This document shows positions 3,079 to 27,951 of a DNA stretch of 40,471 nt, piece after piece. The stretch's first letter is position 1. Each line of letters opens with the position of its first letter. The translations under genes were made by a program, and so were the position numbers. This DNA comes from a virus (lineage: Duplodnaviria > Heunggongvirae > Uroviricota > Caudoviricetes): IMG/VR virus record IMGVR_UViG_2565956717_000010, positions 1 through 40,471 of that record. One strand, given 5' to 3'. The notes beneath the pieces were generated by a model. It was not told where the DNA came from. It did no database searches and saw nothing but the letters and a program-made list of their open reading frames with translations.

Positions 3079-3360
3079 ACTTTCTCCTGTTTACTATCTA
3101 TAAGCCAGTCAATTATTGATGACTAACCCCCGCATAGTAAACCATATATGAATCATTATTGTTCCATATCATATATCTCAATAAAAGTACTAATGATTTT
3201 ACAGAACGAGCCAGCAGAGTGAGGGCAGTTGTACAGGAACCATAGACTTAATTTTGTATTTAATAATGCTATGGTGTAATAAACCTGAACATGTATTTAA
3301 AATACGTACTGATTCATGATAGAATTCAAGGATAACTTTTCACAAACTCCGTTTTTGATA

Positions 3361-3387
3361 CCCGCAAAATATTGCGGGCTTTTTTTT
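3361..3387 (+). terminator. Strong intrinsic terminator (plus-strand polarity) between lysis cassette and tailspike
   Basis: Stem CCCGCAA/TTGCGGG with 4-nt loop followed by T8 on the plus strand. On the minus strand the hairpin is preceded by an A-tract, so it is not a classical minus-strand terminator. Confidence 0.5.
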
Positions 3388-6300
3388 AACGTTCTTCCAG
3401 AGACTGAATCCGCTCTTTTATCTTATCCATTTCTCTGCGCTGCCATGCTGCCTCGATATAGAATAAGAGATCAGGTCTGACCCCCCATCTAGATCCTGCT
3501 GGCGTTATTTCAACGCGCTCAATGATGTCTTCCATTACCATCACTGGATTATCATCCTCATCAACAATAATGCTCCCGTCATTATCAGTCAGCGGCATTT
3601 CCCTTTGGCCAGTAATGACGTCATCATATACTGCGGGATAATCGTCATAGCAAAGAAACGCATAGCGGCATGTTGTGCTTTCTTCTTCCATGAGTCCGTG
3701 AGAAATAAGAACATCACGAAGTTGCTGCGCGATTACACCATGATGTATCCTCGCCCCTTCTTCCCCCTTTATAGCGACAGCGTTCAGCCATTTATAAGCG
3801 ATATACCTGACGTCACCCCAGGCATCCAGCAATGCTTCGTCAGGAGAGACCGGCTCTGTCTTTAATGTTCCGTCACTGGTAACCACAGGATTGGAGCCAA
3901 GATAAACTGTCGAGAACCTGTTTCCCGGACCACCAAGAGCATTTACATTATCAAGATAAGGTTTAACATCTCCGTTCTCAAAAAGATGTTCGAGTGCGTT
4001 ATATACCGCGCGACGTGGAGTACTGCTTCCGGAACCATGCAACGTTATCATTGCACCATCTGCTGAAGACGTTGTTTCACCGCCGCTAACGATTAATCTC
4101 TGAGCGGTAACATCATCAGACGGTACTTTCTTCGCAATAATGGCGTAATTACCCTCAAGTTTGACTTCCGCGCGAACTTGTCCTGATGTACCTGCATGGA
4201 CAGTCAGTGACTGGACGGCAACATCATCTGTGAAATCAACGGGTACAGGAACCGTCCTCACGCCTGACGTCGACATAAAAGTAGGAAGCGTTCTGTTAGG
4301 AGTGGCTCCGTAGACAAAATCCCTTGAAACAAATTCTTCCTGTTTAATTTTCACCCTGAAACAATACAAATCAGCCGGGTGACCATCGTGAACATAAGGA
4401 TATTTTCTGTTGTTATCCCCTATGCTCCATGGGTTTAGAAAGTCTTCCCCACCGAAAATGTAGTACAGCCAGTTGTCTTTGATACAAACTGAACCAACAC
4501 CAACCGCAGAGTTAACTATTCCGCCCTGATAAATCTGATCAGTAACATTAACCCACTCTACATTATCCAGACTCCACTCATTGACGTTAACTCTGGTCAT
4601 AAATGTTCTTGGATAATTTCCTGCATAACGGTTATCAGGTTCTCCTCCTTCCCACTCACCAAATGCGCGCTCACTGCCAAAAATAATCAGCTCATCGCCA
4701 ACTTTGGCAAAAGGAAGGTTTGAGTGATGAACATTATTTGGGAAGCGAAGAGAATTCCATGATGTACCTAAATCAGAGCTTCTGTGCAATGAACTACCGG
4801 GTTGAGTACTTAATGTCCCCCTGGTCGTCAGATACAGAATGCCATCATAATATTTTACACATGGCTCAGATGCATTCGCCTCATATTCTGCAGGTATGCG
4901 TCTGCGAACAAAGCTACCAGGAGAACCGAAAGCATCAGAGAAATAGAGTATCCCAAGCTCGCGTGGACCAATATCACCATTATGGTAGCCAACAGCAAAA
5001 CTGTTATCGCTAATCGTCGCAAAACTGTGAATCTCAGTAACAGGAGTGCTTCCGTCAACAAAAGAAGGAATAGTTCCAAGACTGGTTTTTCTCCATGGTG
5101 ACGAGTGAAATGATGTACCAAAACTCCAGTATCTACCCTCGTTATTCTGATCCACATCCTGGGTATTTTGCGTCGTAACTGTAAAAGTATTTTTATCAAT
5201 AACAGTAGTCACCGTCATATTCCCGGTAACACCTGTAACACCAGAGTTTGAGAAGTTGACAAAATCACCAGCAAATAATCCGTGATCAGTAATGCGAATA
5301 TAAGCGACTTGCTGATTTGCTGCTTTCGTTATACCACCATAAACGCGAAGGCTGCGACTCATTGGGCGATCCCACAACTCTGCAACCTGCAGTTTATTTC
5401 CGCTCACGGTCCGCGTCTCAATTACAGCAAAAAGGCGATTTCTGACAACCCCCATACTCATGCAGTGATAGTTAACTGTGGGATAGTTTTCATGTAAATC
5501 TGTAAGCCATTCCGGCGTTGTCCAGGTCTTCCCGTCATCTCCTGAGCGAACCCATGCAACATGGAGGTTATTTACACCATGGCGGTCTCCAGCCATAAAA
5601 GGCGCATAGATGACATTGTCATATACAAACGTTTTATCCTGCGTCCAGGCGTTGTACCACGGTGTATCTGTAATTTTAAATAACTCTCCCTGGATAAAAT
5701 CTTCAGAAGCATAAAAAAGAGGCTGGCCCGGTATTCTCTCAAATAAAAAACGAGCATTTTTAAATCGACTGACATCCGGAAGAGTTGATACTTTAAAAGT
5801 AAGCCCTAATCCGTCAATTCTATAACCTGGAGATGAGGCTTCAAGGCACGCGCTTATTGCAGTGGAATCGTCATTTATACCATCACCAACAGCTCCAAAA
5901 TCTTTGGGGCTAATAGCATCACGCATTTTATCCTGGAACGTTCGGTACACAGCCCCAGAACCATACTGAATAAACCAACCAAAACCACCAACAACCCCGG
6001 CGATTGCAGCATCGACATAATTACGCATTGAGCGATTATTTACAGCGTCCTGCTCAAATGATGGATCTGCAAGGTTAGAAATTTTGTTTTGCTTTGCATC
6101 GTAATATTTTGCAAGCAAAGATGGTTTCATCAATGCACGTCTGAACCACCCAAAACATTGCTGGATCAGCATCGTCAGGTAGTCAAAGGCATCTTCATGC
6201 ACTTCGGGGAAAAATTTTCCCTGATTGCGAAGGTCTGTCTCCTGCACTACATCAAGCACACGATCTATCGTAATTCGCCATCCAGTAGCAAGCGGAGACG

Positions 6301-6505
6301 GAAGAACCACAGAACCGCCACTATAAGTGCCCGCCCCAGTTACCGTATAACCGGTATCCAGAACCAATTCTGTTACGTTTCCGTTCAGGTCAGACACCTG
6401 AACAACCAGGTCTGATTTTCTGAAAATTCGAAAAGTATACGGAAACGATGTCGTAACGCCGTTACCGGTGTATTCGTTGTGGTCAACTTCGGTTGAGACC
6501 GTCAT
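3386..6505 (-). CDS. Tailspike with T7 gp17-like N-terminal adaptor, sialidase-fold (endosialidase-like) domain and C-terminal intramolecular chaperone domain
   Basis: Two Asp-box motifs (SGDDGKTW, SSDLGTSW); strong resemblance, from memory, to the K1F endosialidase catalytic region (GELFKITDTP, NYHCMSMGV); C-terminal S74-like domain with SDGTLK cleavage-type motif; N-terminus EYTGNGVTTSFPYTF resembles T7-type fibre adaptors. Confidence 0.8.
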   Translation of the reverse strand: MTVSTEVDHNEYTGNGVTTSFPYTFRIFRKSDLVVQVSDLNGNVTELVLDTGYTVTGAGTYSGGSVVLPSPLATGWRITIDRVLDVVQETDLRNQGKFFPEVHEDAFDYLTMLIQQCFGWFRRALMKPSLLAKYYDAKQNKISNLADPSFEQDAVNNRSMRNYVDAAIAGVVGGFGWFIQYGSGAVYRTFQDKMRDAISPKDFGAVGDGINDDSTAISACLEASSPGYRIDGLGLTFKVSTLPDVSRFKNARFLFERIPGQPLFYASEDFIQGELFKITDTPWYNAWTQDKTFVYDNVIYAPFMAGDRHGVNNLHVAWVRSGDDGKTWTTPEWLTDLHENYPTVNYHCMSMGVVRNRLFAVIETRTVSGNKLQVAELWDRPMSRSLRVYGGITKAANQQVAYIRITDHGLFAGDFVNFSNSGVTGVTGNMTVTTVIDKNTFTVTTQNTQDVDQNNEGRYWSFGTSFHSSPWRKTSLGTIPSFVDGSTPVTEIHSFATISDNSFAVGYHNGDIGPRELGILYFSDAFGSPGSFVRRRIPAEYEANASEPCVKYYDGILYLTTRGTLSTQPGSSLHRSSDLGTSWNSLRFPNNVHHSNLPFAKVGDELIIFGSERAFGEWEGGEPDNRYAGNYPRTFMTRVNVNEWSLDNVEWVNVTDQIYQGGIVNSAVGVGSVCIKDNWLYYIFGGEDFLNPWSIGDNNRKYPYVHDGHPADLYCFRVKIKQEEFVSRDFVYGATPNRTLPTFMSTSGVRTVPVPVDFTDDVAVQSLTVHAGTSGQVRAEVKLEGNYAIIAKKVPSDDVTAQRLIVSGGETTSSADGAMITLHGSGSSTPRRAVYNALEHLFENGDVKPYLDNVNALGGPGNRFSTVYLGSNPVVTSDGTLKTEPVSPDEALLDAWGDVRYIAYKWLNAVAIKGEEGARIHHGVIAQQLRDVLISHGLMEEESTTCRYAFLCYDDYPAVYDDVITGQREMPLTDNDGSIIVDEDDNPVMVMEDIIERVEITPAGSRWGVRPDLLFYIEAAWQRREMDKIKERIQSLEER

Positions 6506-6609: not shown

Positions 6610-6624
6610 TTACCTTTCAGGTAA
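6610..6624. promoter_or_regulatory. Operator-like palindrome TTACC-N5-GGTAA (site 1)
   Basis: Perfect inverted repeat TTACCtttcaGGTAA flanked A..T; in divergent region between tailspike start and the LexA-box gene. Confidence 0.45.
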
Positions 6625-7004: not shown

Positions 7005-7095
7005 ATTTACATCGCACTCCTCTTGTGCCATAGTAATCGGGCACTGGCAAAATCCAGTGCCGGGATTGGTCTCCCGGATTACTAAGTGGCGCATA

Positions 7096-7117
7096 CCACG
7101 CCAGACGTGGTTTTTTT
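7096..7117 (+). terminator. Intrinsic terminator after small antirepressor-like gene
   Basis: Stem CCACG/CGTGG with 5-nt loop followed by T7. Confidence 0.5.
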
Positions 7118-7275
7118 ATGCGTATAGCACAGTCATGCCAGAATTATGGTGGGCTGAATGGGGGTCCGAAAGGACGCCGGTACCACTTAGGCCGGTAAGA
7201 CCAACTCCGTTCAGTTCACCACCATCTGATTGGTCTCAGCGGTGGTGATGTAATTCGCTAAGTGGAGACGCCATA

Positions 7276-23465: not shown

Positions 23466-23758
23466 TCCTGTTCACTGGCCTCTTTGGCCATCTTCAAATA
23501 CTGTTCAGGGCAATGCGCCATAACGCGCTGAAACAGTTCCAGCGCCAGATTGCGTTGCCCCTCATTAAATGCCATAGCCATAGCGTCCATCGGTGAGATA
23601 GCAGAAAACACACGGCCTTTCTCCAGCACCGACCAGACAACGCGACGCCCCTGTTCACTGCTCATGACAAAGCGAATGTCATCAATTTCACGCTGTGCCA
23701 TGTCACGTTGCTTACGGGCGTTTTCTTCTTTCAGTTGATCGTCTTCGTAATCTGTCAT
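23462..23758 (-). CDS. Hypothetical head-assembly protein
   Basis: 98 aa, overlaps portal stop and scaffold start. Confidence 0.45.
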   Translation of the reverse strand: MTDYEDDQLKEENARKQRDMAQREIDDIRFVMSSEQGRRVVWSVLEKGRVFSAISPMDAMAMAFNEGQRNLALELFQRVMAHCPEQYLKMAKEASEQE

Positions 23759-25434
23759 TGTGATTGCCCACCCTGACCACTAACTGCATTCGCCATAGCT
23801 GACAAAACACTCGGATCCGAAGTTTTAGCTTCGCTTAGCGTCTTGGCACCCTGTGCCGCCGCCATCCCCATCGCCATCATTTGTTGCTGCTGTTGCTGCT
23901 GTGCCCGTTGCTGGCGAGCCTGCTCAACCTGTTCCTGCGGAACAATGACGGTTGGAGACACTCCGGACATATCAGCGAATGCATCGATTGCCTGATCAAC
24001 GTTGAGTTTGTCGAGAGCTTCTGGTTTCGCTTGCGCAAGTTGACCAATGAAGTTAACCGTGGACGCCAGACTGGACAGGCCGATAGACTTCTGCGCCTGA
24101 GCCATGACGGAAATGTATTCGACCTTCAGGGGCATACCTTCCATCGCGTCAGGCGGGGGCGGCAGCATGTTTTTACGCACCATCATCGAGAAAGCGCGGT
24201 CAATGAGAGGATTAAGACATTCGTCGTTCAGACGCTCCAGAACCGGCCCCAACATCAGAAGTTTTTCTTCTTTCATTTCGATCACCGCTTCAACAGGCAT
24301 CGAACGGGTATTGATGTTCTGCAACATCATGAACAGATCGACAAAGTAGGCACTGTTAATGATTTGACGAGTGTCCTGAATGTCTGCCACCAGATCTGCT
24401 GTACTGGGGTTAACCAGATAAGCAGGCCTGAAACCATCCTGACCAGTAATCTGATCGATATACGTGATGTCGCCAGGAAGAAGGGAGGCGCGCTGATTCT
24501 TGAGGGAAGTCGGAGCAATCATCGGCGGATTGGTGGCTTTATCAATCAACTGCGACTTGCGCTTCTGGAGAAGCTGCAATGCCTTAACAGGTCCAAGCGC
24601 CAGCATACCCGGGCATGATGATCCATAAACATCTTCGCCGTTAACTTCCCAGCGCGGAGCCATAATTGGAAACTCATCGAATCCGGACTCACGCAACAAC
24701 TTGTCGTTATCGCCACCAACCTCGTAATAAACCGATTTGAATGGCTTGTTCTTGCTATCCAGCTTCGATGTATCGCGGTCAATGTTCGGGTAAACCGAAT
24801 GCATCACTTCAATCCACTTCTCGTAGGTGCCGCTTTCCCACATGCTTTTTACGGATTCGCTGACGTTATTTAGCCCGAACTCCTGAACAAGCTGACGAAC
24901 AGTCATAGAGAACTTGCGAAAACAGGTGTCCACACTGCCACGAGGTGAGTTAGCCAGGTAGTAACTGCCTATCGGGAATGGCATTGTGCGAATGATGTCC
25001 TCGTCATCCTCCAGCACCGCCATTGCACCAGTGCTGTATGTGCCGAGGCTTCCGTATAACTGCGGAAGAGACTGGTAGAGATTCGACTTATTGAACATAT
25101 CGTTCATGCGGTTCTGAACTGCCTCAAGCCACAACTTAACAGGGCCATAGTCCATCATTTCAGGATCTGGCGTAGCCAGGCGAAACCACGGACGGGCGGG
25201 GCTTGTTATGCCTGACATCATGCCGCTGGCAAGAGTGCGCGCCGCCATAGTCCCGGTCGAATCAATAATGCGTGTATTGCGTCGATCGTTACGGTTTACC
25301 TCAGAAGTCAGAAAGCGGGAACCACGCGGGTTGATGTAATCACTCAACTCGCGCCAGTGCGGCTCGAACGACTGACGCTCGCTTTCAAGTTGTGCGAACT
25401 GTTTGTTCAATCGCTCTTTAGTTGTTTCCGCCAT
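23755..25434 (-). CDS. Portal protein
   Basis: 559 aa; GGAG RBS; follows terminase genes; Gln/Ala-rich C-terminal tail. Confidence 0.7.
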   Translation of the reverse strand: MAETTKERLNKQFAQLESERQSFEPHWRELSDYINPRGSRFLTSEVNRNDRRNTRIIDSTGTMAARTLASGMMSGITSPARPWFRLATPDPEMMDYGPVKLWLEAVQNRMNDMFNKSNLYQSLPQLYGSLGTYSTGAMAVLEDDEDIIRTMPFPIGSYYLANSPRGSVDTCFRKFSMTVRQLVQEFGLNNVSESVKSMWESGTYEKWIEVMHSVYPNIDRDTSKLDSKNKPFKSVYYEVGGDNDKLLRESGFDEFPIMAPRWEVNGEDVYGSSCPGMLALGPVKALQLLQKRKSQLIDKATNPPMIAPTSLKNQRASLLPGDITYIDQITGQDGFRPAYLVNPSTADLVADIQDTRQIINSAYFVDLFMMLQNINTRSMPVEAVIEMKEEKLLMLGPVLERLNDECLNPLIDRAFSMMVRKNMLPPPPDAMEGMPLKVEYISVMAQAQKSIGLSSLASTVNFIGQLAQAKPEALDKLNVDQAIDAFADMSGVSPTVIVPQEQVEQARQQRAQQQQQQQMMAMGMAAAQGAKTLSEAKTSDPSVLSAMANAVSGQGGQSQ

Positions 25435-25448
25435 TTCAATGACTCCGG

Positions 25449-25655
25449 TTACTGACCAAGTAGCGTTTTACCGCTGGTATTAGCGGTTGATGTGTCACCC
25501 TGAGAACCGGTAAGCAGCGTAGAACTACGACCAGCAGCAGCGCGACGGCGACGAGTTTCTTCGTCGCGGGCATCAACAACGGCGGCATCCTGCTCCTGTG
25601 GTGCTGCCTGAACTTCTGGTGTTGCAGGCACTGACGGTGAGCTACCCATGCACAT
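25449..25655 (-). CDS. Small hypothetical protein upstream of portal
   Basis: 68-aa ORF ending 14 nt before portal ATG; weak RBS; Ala/Arg-rich. May be non-coding. Confidence 0.25.
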   Translation of the reverse strand: MCMGSSPSVPATPEVQAAPQEQDAAVVDARDEETRRRRAAAGRSSTLLTGSQGDTSTANTSGKTLLGQ

Positions 25656-25745
25656 ATCAATGACTCCGTACGCAATTAAATTATTACCAATTTAACCATA
25701 TATGATTTATTTATCGTAGATAGTTGACATTTAACGCACGAATTA

Positions 25746-25760
25746 TTACCTTTCAGGTAA
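25746..25760. promoter_or_regulatory. Operator-like palindrome TTACC-N5-GGTAA (site 4)
   Basis: TTACCtttcaGGTAA, identical core to site 1; TTGACA hexamer 16 bp upstream on the plus strand (25724-25729); between portal operon and tRNA. Confidence 0.45.
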
Positions 25761-26082
25761 GCAAATAGTTCATTCAGGTTATTAACCTGACTGGCTTGTC
25801 GTTAAATTGAACAGGTGGAGTGAGCTTTTATTTTGAGCAGTACGGCGTATGGCACATGCGCCGATAGCGGTCTGGATACGCTTAAGGGGCACCCTCCCTT
25901 GCTCGGGCAAACGAACCAGGTAGCCGGAATGTGCAAGTCGAGCGGTTTTATTCCGCGCACGGGGATTCACCATCCCGGCGATTCGGTGTGACGCCTCGGA
26001 AGAGACGAGGGTACAACGATGAGAGCATTTATGGAGCCGCGACAAAGTGTGGCGCCTTAACAGGCTAAGTGCTCTCAGCGTT

Positions 26083-26159
26083 GTGGCATTAGCTCAGTTG
26101 GACAGAGCAACCGCCTTCTAAGCGGTTGGTCGCAGGTTCGAATCCTGCATGCCACGCCA
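26083..26159 (+). tRNA. tRNA-Arg (anticodon UCU)
   Basis: 77 nt, hand-folded cloverleaf: acceptor GTGGCAT/ATGCCAC, D-stem GCTC/GAGC, anticodon stem ACCGC/GCGGT with loop CTTCTAA, T-arm GCAGG-TTCGAAT-CCTGC, discriminator G, encoded CCA. Acceptor stem differs from the host argU I remember. Confidence 0.85.
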
Positions 26160-26202
26160 GAATCACGCCTAAGGACCGTGATGCCAGAAGTTCCAGGGGC
26201 TT

Positions 26203-26244
26203 GGCGGTGATGGTTTCCCTTGAAGGACTATCACCGCCCTTTTT
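26203..26244 (+). terminator. Intrinsic terminator downstream of tRNA
   Basis: Stem GGCGGTGAT/ATCACCGCC with a long loop, followed by CTTTTT. Confidence 0.45.
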
Positions 26245-26322
26245 ACAGCAGGACGCCATTGCGATGACTTCATGCTGTAAACCAGTACAGCCACGGAAGG
26301 CATAACTCATTGCTTCCAGTTC

Positions 26323-26346
26323 GCCCGGTTCGCCGGGCATTTTTTT
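26323..26346 (+). terminator. Intrinsic terminator (second, downstream of tRNA)
   Basis: Stem GCCCGG/CCGGGC with TTCG tetraloop, then T7. Confidence 0.6.
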
Positions 26347-26475
26347 AAGGTGTGAATCATGAAATACGAATTCGATGGATTTTGATGTCGTGACATGTCA
26401 CAAACAGCCAGCCGATGAGCTGGCTTTGTTTTATCCTCATCAGAGGATATCAACGACATTATCCCCACCAGCGGA

Positions 26476-27951
26476 TTAAGCATAGGGATCGTAATCTGTG
26501 ATGGCCTTGCCTTGCTGGTTCTGCTGCCCGGGAATTCGCAGACGCCTCGACACAGGGAACGCAAACGTCAGCAGTAGCGCATCGCCTTTACCCGGCGAAC
26601 GCCCAAGCCGCTCCTTGATATCCTCCTTCGGTTCGATAACGATTTTACCGTCCACGCGAACTTTGTACTCTGCCGCCGACAGGTCGTCTGCAGTTTCCTG
26701 GTCATCCAGCATGCCGCCCAGCCTCAGCCATGTCTTACATGAGTTGAACATCTCCCCACGCTTGTTAAGCATCTGCGGGTCAGTAGACGCGCCACCGAAC
26801 GGAACAAGTTGCCATGTACGACCCCAGCCGTCACCGATTGACTTCAAACCGGTTCCGTAACCGAAGTCGATGAACACCGCGTCAGCCTGATACTGGTCTT
26901 CAAAGTCAGCGATACGCTTCGCCATAATCAGATCGTCGGTAGTCTTGTTGCCAGTCCACAGCACCTTACTGTGTAGCCCCTGCCGCAGGTATATCACAGC
27001 GTCATCAACGCCGGAGTATGCCGGGTCAACGCCGATTATCACCGGAGCATGTGCAACCTGCGCAGCGGTTACCACCCGTTTCATTGCCTCGTCAGTAAGA
27101 CCGGTAGGGATAAACTGCAATTCAGATGCATCAGGGAATATGCCACGCACACGGATTTTAACGAAGTCGCTGTCTTCCCCGTAGTCATCAACCCATTTCT
27201 GCAACTGCTGTTTGTTGGTACCTTCCACCGTCCGACTGTCAATCTGCGCAGTTTTCCAGCGGTGTTTATACTTGCGGAAACATTCACGGAAACGTCCGGT
27301 ATTACGTGTAGGGTTTCCGAACGCCACCCAGATAATCTCAGTGTCTTCGTCCGTAAGCGCACCCTCAGCAACTTCCCACACCAGATCCGCAATGTTCGAC
27401 GCTTCATCAAACACCACGATGATGCGTTTGCGCTCGTTGTGTAGTCCGGCGAATGCCTCAGTGTTGTGCTCAGACCAGGGGATTGCGTCAGCTCGCCACC
27501 GCTTGTCGTGCCCAGGATCATTGCTGTACATCGCAGTAGCGGTACAGGTAAACCAGTCTTTCGTGATAGCAAGGTTCGACCACTTGATAATTTCCGGCCA
27601 GGTCTTCGTTCGTAGCTGGTTGTCGGTGTTGGCGGTCACCACGACCTTACAATCCTCGCAAGTGGACATGCCCCAGTTGATCAGCATTGAGATGAATGCG
27701 GATTTACCAATACCGTGACCAGAAGCGCGTGCCAGCATAAGCGGCTGATAGCGCGTCTCTGGATTCTGCAGGTGATCACGTATCTCTCGGAACGCATCAG
27801 CCTGCCACTGACGTGGACCGGTGGCATGTGCCAGTTCAGTACCCTCTTCCCCCCACGGGAACGCATAGAGGGCATAGCCAAGCGGATCGTGAGTGAACCC
27901 TGCAATATCCTCGATCAACTGCTCTTCAGGAGATAACGCTGTATCTGTCAC
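26476..27951 (-). CDS. Terminase large subunit
   Basis: 491 aa; Walker A-like ASGHGIGKS; GTG start overlaps small-subunit stop (GTGA). Confidence 0.8.
   Translation of the reverse strand: MTDTALSPEEQLIEDIAGFTHDPLGYALYAFPWGEEGTELAHATGPRQWQADAFREIRDHLQNPETRYQPLMLARASGHGIGKSAFISMLINWGMSTCEDCKVVVTANTDNQLRTKTWPEIIKWSNLAITKDWFTCTATAMYSNDPGHDKRWRADAIPWSEHNTEAFAGLHNERKRIIVVFDEASNIADLVWEVAEGALTDEDTEIIWVAFGNPTRNTGRFRECFRKYKHRWKTAQIDSRTVEGTNKQQLQKWVDDYGEDSDFVKIRVRGIFPDASELQFIPTGLTDEAMKRVVTAAQVAHAPVIIGVDPAYSGVDDAVIYLRQGLHSKVLWTGNKTTDDLIMAKRIADFEDQYQADAVFIDFGYGTGLKSIGDGWGRTWQLVPFGGASTDPQMLNKRGEMFNSCKTWLRLGGMLDDQETADDLSAAEYKVRVDGKIVIEPKEDIKERLGRSPGKGDALLLTFAFPVSRRLRIPGQQNQQGKAITDYDPYA

Follow-up and report, generated by a model that had tools for sequence, protein, structure and literature searches.

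A covarying leader RNA with a predicted pseudoknotted fold precedes a Uetakevirus tRNA-Arg(UCU) gene and recurs in unrelated temperate phages

In phage HK022, the put sites (putL and putR) act as an RNA-only, processive antiterminator of about 70 nt and two stem-loops, which suppresses termination in cis and depends on the beta' zinc-binding domain. The eps-associated RNA (EAR) of Bacillales is a pseudoknotted leader linked to read-through of terminators within its operon. RNase III hairpins of the T7 early region punctuate the early transcript, and the T4 tRNA cluster cotranscribes stable RNAs that are not tRNAs. Antitermination by boxA and Nus has been described for rrn leaders, for lambda nut and for boxA upstream of CRISPR arrays (PMC7665894). 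The subject here is the leader that precedes the tRNA-Arg(UCU) gene on the + strand of a 40,471-nt stretch of viral DNA (IMG/VR record IMGVR_UViG_2565956717_000010), which is called the window below and was identified as a prophage of the genus Uetakevirus (epsilon15/phiV10-like).

The leader RNA and its predicted fold

Judged by its compensatory changes, the leader is a covarying structured RNA of about 245 nt in all, consisting of a pseudoknotted 5' domain (about 175 nt) and, behind it, a long stem. Its parts in the window are as follows.

25814..25837, + strand: stem A, a long stem upstream, of which only the 3' half (GGTGGAGTGAGCTTTTATTTTGAG) is left (deduced from the Tyrion and epsilon15 sequences)
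25838..26015, + strand: conserved structured 5' domain (covariance model R1, pair counts, shuffles)
25843-25863, + strand: helix P1, a hairpin (alignment)
25871-25875 with 25916-25920, + strand: helix P2, closing a variable subdomain (alignment)
25919-25937, + strand: invariant junction 19-mer GGTAGCCGGAATGTGCAAG (alignment)
About 25943-25956, + strand: helix P3, a hairpin
25962-25965 with 25973-25976, + strand: helix P4 (alignment)
25968-25971 with 25985-25988, + strand: pseudoknot PK2, CACC with GGTG (alignment)
25852-25857 with 25929-25934, + strand: possible pseudoknot PK1, GCACAT with ATGTGC
25994-25998 with 26006-26010, + strand: helix P5, loop GAAGAGA (alignment)
26014-26030 with 26067-26083 (AAGTGCTCTCAGCGTTG), + strand: long stem B, 17 bp (compensatory changes in relatives)
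26031-26066, + strand: tip of stem B, 36 nt, hypervariable in relatives

The model of the 5' domain was built by hand, because RNAalifold mis-paired the variable regions, and was tested by pair counting on an alignment of 34 representatives, none more than 93% identical. Covariance model R1 scored the window's domain at 140.3 bits (E=4e-37). Of the cells, 88-90% were paired, versus 27-48% when the partners were slid by 1-3 columns; 14 pairs had changes on both sides, and the covariation score was matched by 0 of 500 shuffles. Pair 10-22 of helix P1 was G-C in 18 sequences and A-U in 16, and the long-range helix P2 appeared as UCUGG/CCAGG, UCCGG/CCGGG, UCUGAC/GUCAGG or UCCACAGCC/GGGCUUGUGGG. 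Both-side changes were found in three of the four pairs of P4 and in five pairs of P5, the GAAGAG loop of which was conserved. Pseudoknot PK2, joining the loop of P4 to a downstream strand, read CACC/GGUG, or AACC/GGUU in three sequences. The two strands of PK1, GCACAU and AUGUGC, were complementary in 34 of 34 sequences; since they are almost invariant in this set, PK1 is neither supported nor refuted by covariation. About 50 invariant nucleotides lay in unpaired junctions of the domain, and the leader as a whole was strongly structured (minimum free energy z=-2.8). The fold is possible only from the + strand, because its conserved G-U pairs (34-96, UG in 34/34; 11-21, UG in 33/34) would become A-C mismatches on the other. 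Both halves of stem A are retained in Tyrion and epsilon15. A possible closing helix, formed by the 5' flank and the segment beyond P5, was dropped on inspection, its pairing being inconsistent across subfamilies.

Stem B was represented in relatives by 27 distinct arm pairs, all of which fold (-15.6 to -24.9 kcal/mol), with 78% of cells paired and both-side changes in 8 pairs; compensatory arm pairs include CAACGAUGAGAGCA/UGCUCUCAGCGUUG, CAACAGGUAAGAGCA/UGCUCUUUCCGUUG, CAACACGAGAGCGCAC/GUGCGCUCCCGGUUG and CACAAUCAAAGAGCG/CGCUCUUUUUGAUUGUG. The stem carries a conserved A-G mismatch, and its last pair in the window includes G26083, with which the tRNA begins. The tips varied from about 1 to more than 100 nt and were unrelated in sequence. 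At loci without a tRNA, stem B is followed by UGAAU and then by a covarying hairpin with a GGCUGA loop. Farther downstream of the 5' domain, short conserved modules such as CCCAGACGATATCTGAGTGGCT and GGGAGCCGGTGGAATCCCGGC recurred in varying order in loci L009, L031 and L128; to judge from such recurrences, each leader is a mosaic put together from small RNA units.

In the original prediction, the leader was said to hold no convincing open reading frame (ORF) on the tRNA strand and perhaps a degraded second tRNA or a small RNA. The first statement agrees with the comparison, in which no ORF was conserved across representatives. Stops in all six frames were present in 6 of 35 representatives, the elements (152-184 nt) fell into all three modulo-3 length classes, and the open frame varied between copies; a coding role was rejected on these grounds. 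A second tRNA was not found in the window's leader, by ARAGORN or by the Rfam tRNA scan to E<=10, and 25700-26082 had no Rfam 15 match at gathering score or at E<=10. As for a small RNA, an RNA it appears to be, whereas "small" was too modest for a covarying module of about 245 nt common to unrelated phage families.

Some support for the view of the leader as the remains of a tRNA, as a gene for a small protein or as a spacer without function comes from the hypothetical proteins annotated across the element in some phage records and from T-arm-like hairpins (CTGGTTCAATTCCAG, TCCGTTCAATTCGGA and GCGGTTCGATTCCGC) in stem B tips across L008 and L095, CTGGTTCAATTCCAG being that of L008 and GCGGTTCGATTCCGC that of L095. 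These hairpins may be tRNA remnants or tRNA-like minihelices; none occurs in the window's own tip. The probability of this view is nevertheless close to nil. Besides the tRNA scans and frame statistics given above, the substitutions are compensatory for pairing, and the GGCUGA-loop hairpin preserves its pairing through changes that do not conserve amino acids; an in-frame stop at this place in L057 marks it as RNA and not as the start of a coding sequence.

A complex pseudoknotted fold with invariant junctions, adjoining RNA processing sites, might also suit a self-cleaving or otherwise catalytic RNA. This is highly improbable, however, as no known ribozyme family matched, a conserved cleavage-site signature was not seen, and about 175 nt is far larger than most self-cleavers. 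Searches by keyword and conserved string returned no published description of the RNA, most subscription journals lying outside their scope, so that an older account is possible. The leader is taken to represent an undescribed RNA family, probably of a known functional kind, that of cis-acting leader RNAs.

An operator-controlled cassette and its tRNA gene

The leader is part of a single + strand, operator-controlled cassette, made up in order of promoter and operator, leader RNA, tRNA-Arg(UCU), terminators T1 and T2, a deleted cargo gene and terminator T3. The cassette and its neighbours are located as follows.

23755-25434, - strand: portal gene, flanking the cassette
25449-25655, - strand: 68-aa ORF between the portal gene and the cassette
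25724..25752, + strand: promoter-like site TTGACA-17 nt-TACCTT, read from the sequence, with a perfect -35 and a weak -10
25746-25760, no strand assigned: operator-like palindrome TTACCTTTCAGGTAA, overlapping the weak -10
26083-26159, + strand: tRNA-Arg(UCU), CCA encoded (ARAGORN, Rfam RF00005; tRNA-Arg annotated in close relatives)
26203..26245, + strand: terminator T1, a 14-bp stem then CTTTTT (terminator scan)
26323..26346, + strand: terminator T2, GCCCGGTTCGCCGGGC then T7 (scan; in relatives it runs directly into the cargo ribosome binding site, RBS)
26347..26385, + strand: RBS AAGGTG and 8-codon remnant of the deleted cargo gene, ATG at 26359 (sequence; comparison with L155)
26406..26435, + strand: terminator T3, end of the cassette (scan and relative L155)
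26476-27951, - strand: large terminase gene, the other flank

A TTGACA beside a palindrome had been noticed upstream of the tRNA, and the two were placed at 25724-25729 and 25746-25760 (TTACCTTTCAGGTAA), respectively, with TACCTT 17 nt beyond the hexamer. This promoter-like site failed a consensus promoter scan (0 found); epsilon15 has the identical arrangement of TTGACA-17-TACCTT and palindrome. Copies of the palindrome TTACCT-N3-AGGTAA numbered 14 in the window, versus 0.9 expected by chance, and it behaves like a phage operator because they cluster around a gene for a helix-turn-helix repressor-like protein near 34 kb. The equivalent palindrome of epsilon15 is annotated in its record as a repressor binding site/operator. 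From this arrangement we infer that the cassette is off in the lysogen and on after induction. Operator palindromes at 6610, 6990 and 7993 also flank a pair of RNAs at 7041-7226 on the + strand, where IsrK (67.7 bits) adjoins C4 antisense RNA (61.2 bits), as in the antirepressor control region of P1/P7-type immI.

Intrinsic terminators had been expected 3' of the tRNA and were present, three in number instead of the two proposed (26203-26238, 26323-26338 and 26406-26425, + strand; mean of shuffles 1.0). In the close relative L155, the space between T2 and T3 is occupied by a cargo gene for a 135-aa protein of the Gp49/gene-66 family (Pfam PF13876, E=3e-34). About 350 bp of cargo has been deleted in the window (26347-26405, corresponding to L155 28560-28975) and in phage phiv142-3, the nearest record (97.7% identity across 25600-26480).

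The tRNA-Arg(UCU) gene was the sole tRNA detected by ARAGORN in the whole window. It scored 73.3 bits (E=2.5e-14) with the RF00005 cloverleaf model, for which the gathering score is 29, and it had the anticodon UCU, the 3' CCA (...ATGCCACGCCA) and a D-loop AGTTGGACA with A at the position recognized by arginyl-tRNA synthetase (ArgRS). A20 is an arginine identity element of tRNA for this enzyme. The gene is thus real but ordinary, being already annotated in relatives. Its + strand orientation, opposite to the flanking late genes, was as first described, since all neighbours are on the - strand. That it had been "inserted" between terminase and portal genes holds only insofar as the intergenic site in question is a hotspot of cargo swapping within the genus. 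In the phiv142-3 record (L001, MN187550), a tRNA-Arg of 69 nt is placed at 4490-4558 on the complementary strand; it looks mis-annotated, because ARAGORN and Rfam put the homologous gene, of 77 nt, on the other strand.

The suggestion that the tRNA aids translation of phage genes rich in its codon gains from codon counts, which fit the idea without proving it. AGA occurred at 8.0 per 1000 codons in 38 window ORFs versus 1.0 in 42 ORFs from one 43.6-kb core region of the host, an approximately 8-fold difference, and AGG at 5.6 versus 0.55. AGA codons were spread unevenly: 17 lay in the tailspike-sized ORF 3386-6505 and none in the genes for capsid, portal and terminase; frequencies above 20 per 1000 were reached in several small ORFs of high AT content. 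This enrichment fits with a tRNA-Arg(UCU) that would supply AGA decoding for the AGA-enriched phage genes. The isoleucine codon ATA was also enriched in window ORFs (10.5 versus 3.4 per 1000), yet this phage lacks tRNA-Ile2; P1-type phages carry the same leader paired with that tRNA.

Distribution and genomic contexts

Positions 25842-26085 matched unrelated temperate phages at 70-83% identity. These included cdtI, mEp460, 2H10, Ayreon and Stx2c-converting phages; P1, P7, D6, SJ46 and RCS47; other Uetakeviruses, Tyrion and phiV10 among them; and Klebsiella Lastavirus and BUCT708, the latter deposited as a Stenotrophomonas phage. The invariant 19-mer was present in at least 120 IMG/VR contigs and in 24 contigs of a one-genome-per-species bacterial set, all Enterobacteriaceae except for two metagenome bins labelled Bacillota. 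Of these bins, L137 and L149 (labelled Oscillospiraceae and Bacillota), L149 had a full-length copy (159.5 bits) and L137 gave no model hit at E<=0.01 despite its 19-mer; both are probably binning contaminants rather than true hosts. By BLAST, the element was found in 1840 of 5426 complete Escherichia coli genomes, where the only annotation is that of the adjoining tRNA. The family is confined to prophages and phages of Enterobacteriaceae.

Three types of carrier were distinguished: Uetakeviruses; SfV/cdtI-like lambdoids, with the element near the repressor gene and shortly after a strong promoter; and P1-like phages, with the element between trnI and ban. It was always in the sense orientation to, and upstream of, its cargo, be it a tRNA, moron genes, a repressor-adjacent operon (SfV/cdtI-like) or ban (P1). 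In cdtI, cI and its terminator are followed by a TTGACA-16-CATAAT promoter and, about 50 nt on, by the element, after which come a long leader that is not translated and the leftward genes. This layout is shared by mEp460, whose SfV-like early region has no annotated N gene. The P1 element is situated within the ban operon, which is under C1 control. In BUCT708, a promoter-like site is followed by the element, a terminator (7 G-C pairs and T7) and genes. A gene-strand survey around the element was discarded, since ORFs cut by the sub-window had been lost.

Among the Uetakevirus relatives, AAGGTGAGATT-ATG comes immediately after a terminator that covaries (GCCCGG..CCGGGC or GCCCAC..GTGGGC, then T7). 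The ATG lies 18-19 nt after the terminator, so that there is no room for a promoter between terminator and cargo, and none was detected there. The same junction of terminator hairpin, T7, AAGGTGAGATT and ATG, located about 45 nt upstream of the cargo ATG, was seen in L155, L008, L029, L070, L076, L096 and L119. At least four unrelated cargo families follow it, one of which is N4 Gp49/Sf6 gene 66; the junction looks like a fixed docking point for the exchange of moron genes. In epsilon15 (L004, 2546-2630), the element is reduced to approximately its first 85 nt (33.8 bits). A deletion there fuses the middle of P2 to the region past T1, so that the tRNA, T1 and most of the 5' domain are gone, with the junction of T2, RBS and cargo retained.

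Possible functions and comparison with described systems

The reading favoured here, to which a probability of about 0.4 is given, is that the leader is a portable cis-acting element promoting terminator read-through or processing. It is the simplest, because the element lies sense to and upstream of its cargo in a repressor-controlled transcript, often with a strong terminator ahead of the cargo and no room for a promoter. Since the transcript carrying it is repressor-controlled in all three phage families, the RNA is expected to be made on induction or infection. It would then act in cis on its own transcript or on the transcribing polymerase, making elongation resist the intrinsic terminators between leader and cargo, and also Rho on long untranslated stretches, by analogy with HK022 put or with boxA/Nus complexes. 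RNase P would cut 5' of G26083 and RNase III possibly within the long stem, separating the leader from the tRNA.

Read-through is favoured by the rrn boxA 12-mer GCTCTTTAACAA, which occurred with 0-1 mismatch 123-130 nt after the start of the 19-mer in three divergent copies (L084, L041 and L028); only about six 12-mers of that quality were present in 1.44 Mb of fetched loci. In the same three loci (L084 at about 3350-3375), a hairpin and the exact GCTCTTTAACAA formed a small module directly behind the 5' domain; the 12-mer has a T in front of it, like that of rrn boxA, and TCTGGATA behind it. The module stood alone in L141, 742 nt upstream of its element. Such sequences suggest Nus antitermination of the rrn type in some of these phage operons.

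Several observations weigh against read-through. The boxA-like TGCTCT lies inside the palindromic stem in most copies; in the window, the boxA-like TGCTCTCAGCGT (26070-26081) is paired within stem B, the 3' arm of which starts with TGCTCT. The likeness may be incidental, because the loose motif was as frequent on the opposite strand (65 versus 67 of 97 loci), a symmetry due to the palindromic stem, and the 9-mer core of boxA was not enriched downstream of the element (at least 8/9 matches in 4 of 97 loci, a frequency not above that of controls). Model R1 gave no significant match across the complete HK022 genome (best E=1.6), so that any likeness to put is by analogy only. The P1 element is 2.3 kb from its promoter, and a heuristic search detected no terminator downstream of the leader in cdtI-type copies or between leader and ban in P1. 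The window's cassette still closes with T3, which a fully processive antiterminator would override. Lastly, since epsilon15 has kept the junction and lost most of the 5' domain, either its cargo goes unexpressed or the domain is dispensable.

The main rival, rather unlikely, is that the 5' domain is a stable early non-coding RNA acting in trans by binding a conserved host factor or defence component, once RNase P has cut at the junction with the tRNA and RNase III or RNase E at the long stems on either side. A tRNA abutted the element exactly in 44 of 125 loci: in 27, tRNA-Arg(UCU) begins exactly at the last base of stem B, and in 17, of the P1 type, tRNA-Ile2 ends 15 nt before the element. 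Long stems stand on both sides of the domain in Tyrion and epsilon15, and the roughly 50 invariant unpaired junction nucleotides suggest a conserved binding partner. Because T1 is strong, most transcripts in the window would consist of leader and tRNA only. The T4 tRNA cluster, which makes stable RNAs of unknown role, offers a precedent. However, among about 100 non-redundant loci there was no stand-alone copy with a terminator right after the 5' domain, the element is always placed sense to and upstream of cargo, and no partner gene was common to the three phage families.

The size of the domain, its pseudoknots and its invariant junction nucleotides resemble those of large aptamers, and its place in 5' leaders ahead of terminators might befit a sensor, that is, a riboswitch or protein-binding leader tuning early or cargo expression to a host signal. 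This is quite unlikely. The terminators lie 130-280 nt beyond the domain, with the tRNA or other modules between, which makes a simple switch by alternative pairing implausible; the cargo genes are unrelated, without a common function pointing to a ligand, and no Rfam aptamer matched. Though the core is conserved, the combination that defines a riboswitch (an aptamer, an overlapping expression platform and related genes) was not found.

A plainer role, for which the chance is likewise small, would be to stabilise the transcript or organise its processing, as a structural cap that shields the 5' end from RNase E or as an RNase III scaffold. The strong structure of the leader (z=-2.8) is in keeping with this, as are the position of the P1 element, which would become the 5' end of ban mRNA after processing of tRNA-Ile, and an RNase III site predicted nearby, on the opposite strand, in the epsilon15 record. 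Yet a generic role needs neither some 50 invariant bases nor two predicted pseudoknots across three phage families, and a tRNA requires no 5' stabiliser.

A bolder reading is doubtful: the 5' domain might be a new class of RNA-only processive antiterminator unrelated to put, serving as a portable "read-through licence", or else a new early RNA that disables a conserved host factor. As such a licence, the domain would be carried by Uetakeviruses, SfV-like lambdoids and P1-like phages before tRNAs, moron genes and early operons. If read-through were confirmed, it would provide a second, independent RNA solution beside HK022 put, and would account both for the expression of the leftward early operon in SfV/cdtI-like phages where an N gene is not seen and for the conserved cassette of leader, terminator, RBS and cargo through which moron genes are exchanged. 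Whatever its function, a large and well-supported structured RNA has gone unannotated in about one third of complete E. coli genomes, and it is also carried by phage P1, Stx2c-converting phages and O157 typing phages.

Among the described systems, put is similar in position: a structured RNA downstream of a repressor-controlled early promoter with terminators beyond, as in cdtI, BUCT708 and the window and its relatives, P1 being the exception. As with put, an N gene was neither annotated nor seen among the first ORFs beyond the element. The two differ in sequence and model (HK022 best E=1.6) and in size, the present domain having about 175 nt and two predicted pseudoknots, with a long stem after it, and the element also occurs far from a promoter (P1) and ahead of a tRNA. 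A standard N/nut system was considered and rejected, as the rightward side of mEp460 had no second nut-like site or hairpin and the first downstream ORFs no N-like product. With boxA/Nus systems, the element shares its position before untranslated RNA (a tRNA or long leaders). Three copies have the rrn boxA 12-mer right behind the 5' domain, and the 3' arm of the stem, which starts with TGCTCT, precedes a hairpin, an arrangement like boxA-spacer-boxB. However, the boxA-like stretch is mostly paired in the stem and off consensus, and nothing in nut or rrn leaders corresponds to the conserved 175-nt domain.

EAR is comparable as a pseudoknotted leader in an operon with terminators, but it is unrelated in sequence and host clade, and no Rfam family gave a hit. 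The long imperfect hairpins and the cotranscription of a non-tRNA RNA with a tRNA recall T7 and T4, without homology and with cleavage only predicted here; compared with an RNase III substrate (about 20 bp of mostly regular double-stranded RNA), stem B has 17 bp and a conserved A-G mismatch. Finally, the presence of tRNA-Arg(UCU) in an AGA-rich phage places the cassette beside the rare-codon tRNAs of other phages (argN/argO/ileZ of Stx phages, the P1 tRNAs), and P1 likewise has this leader, paired with tRNA-Ile2. The cassette differs from these in that the exact junction of a conserved structured leader with the first base of the tRNA is noted in none of the annotated phage records fetched.

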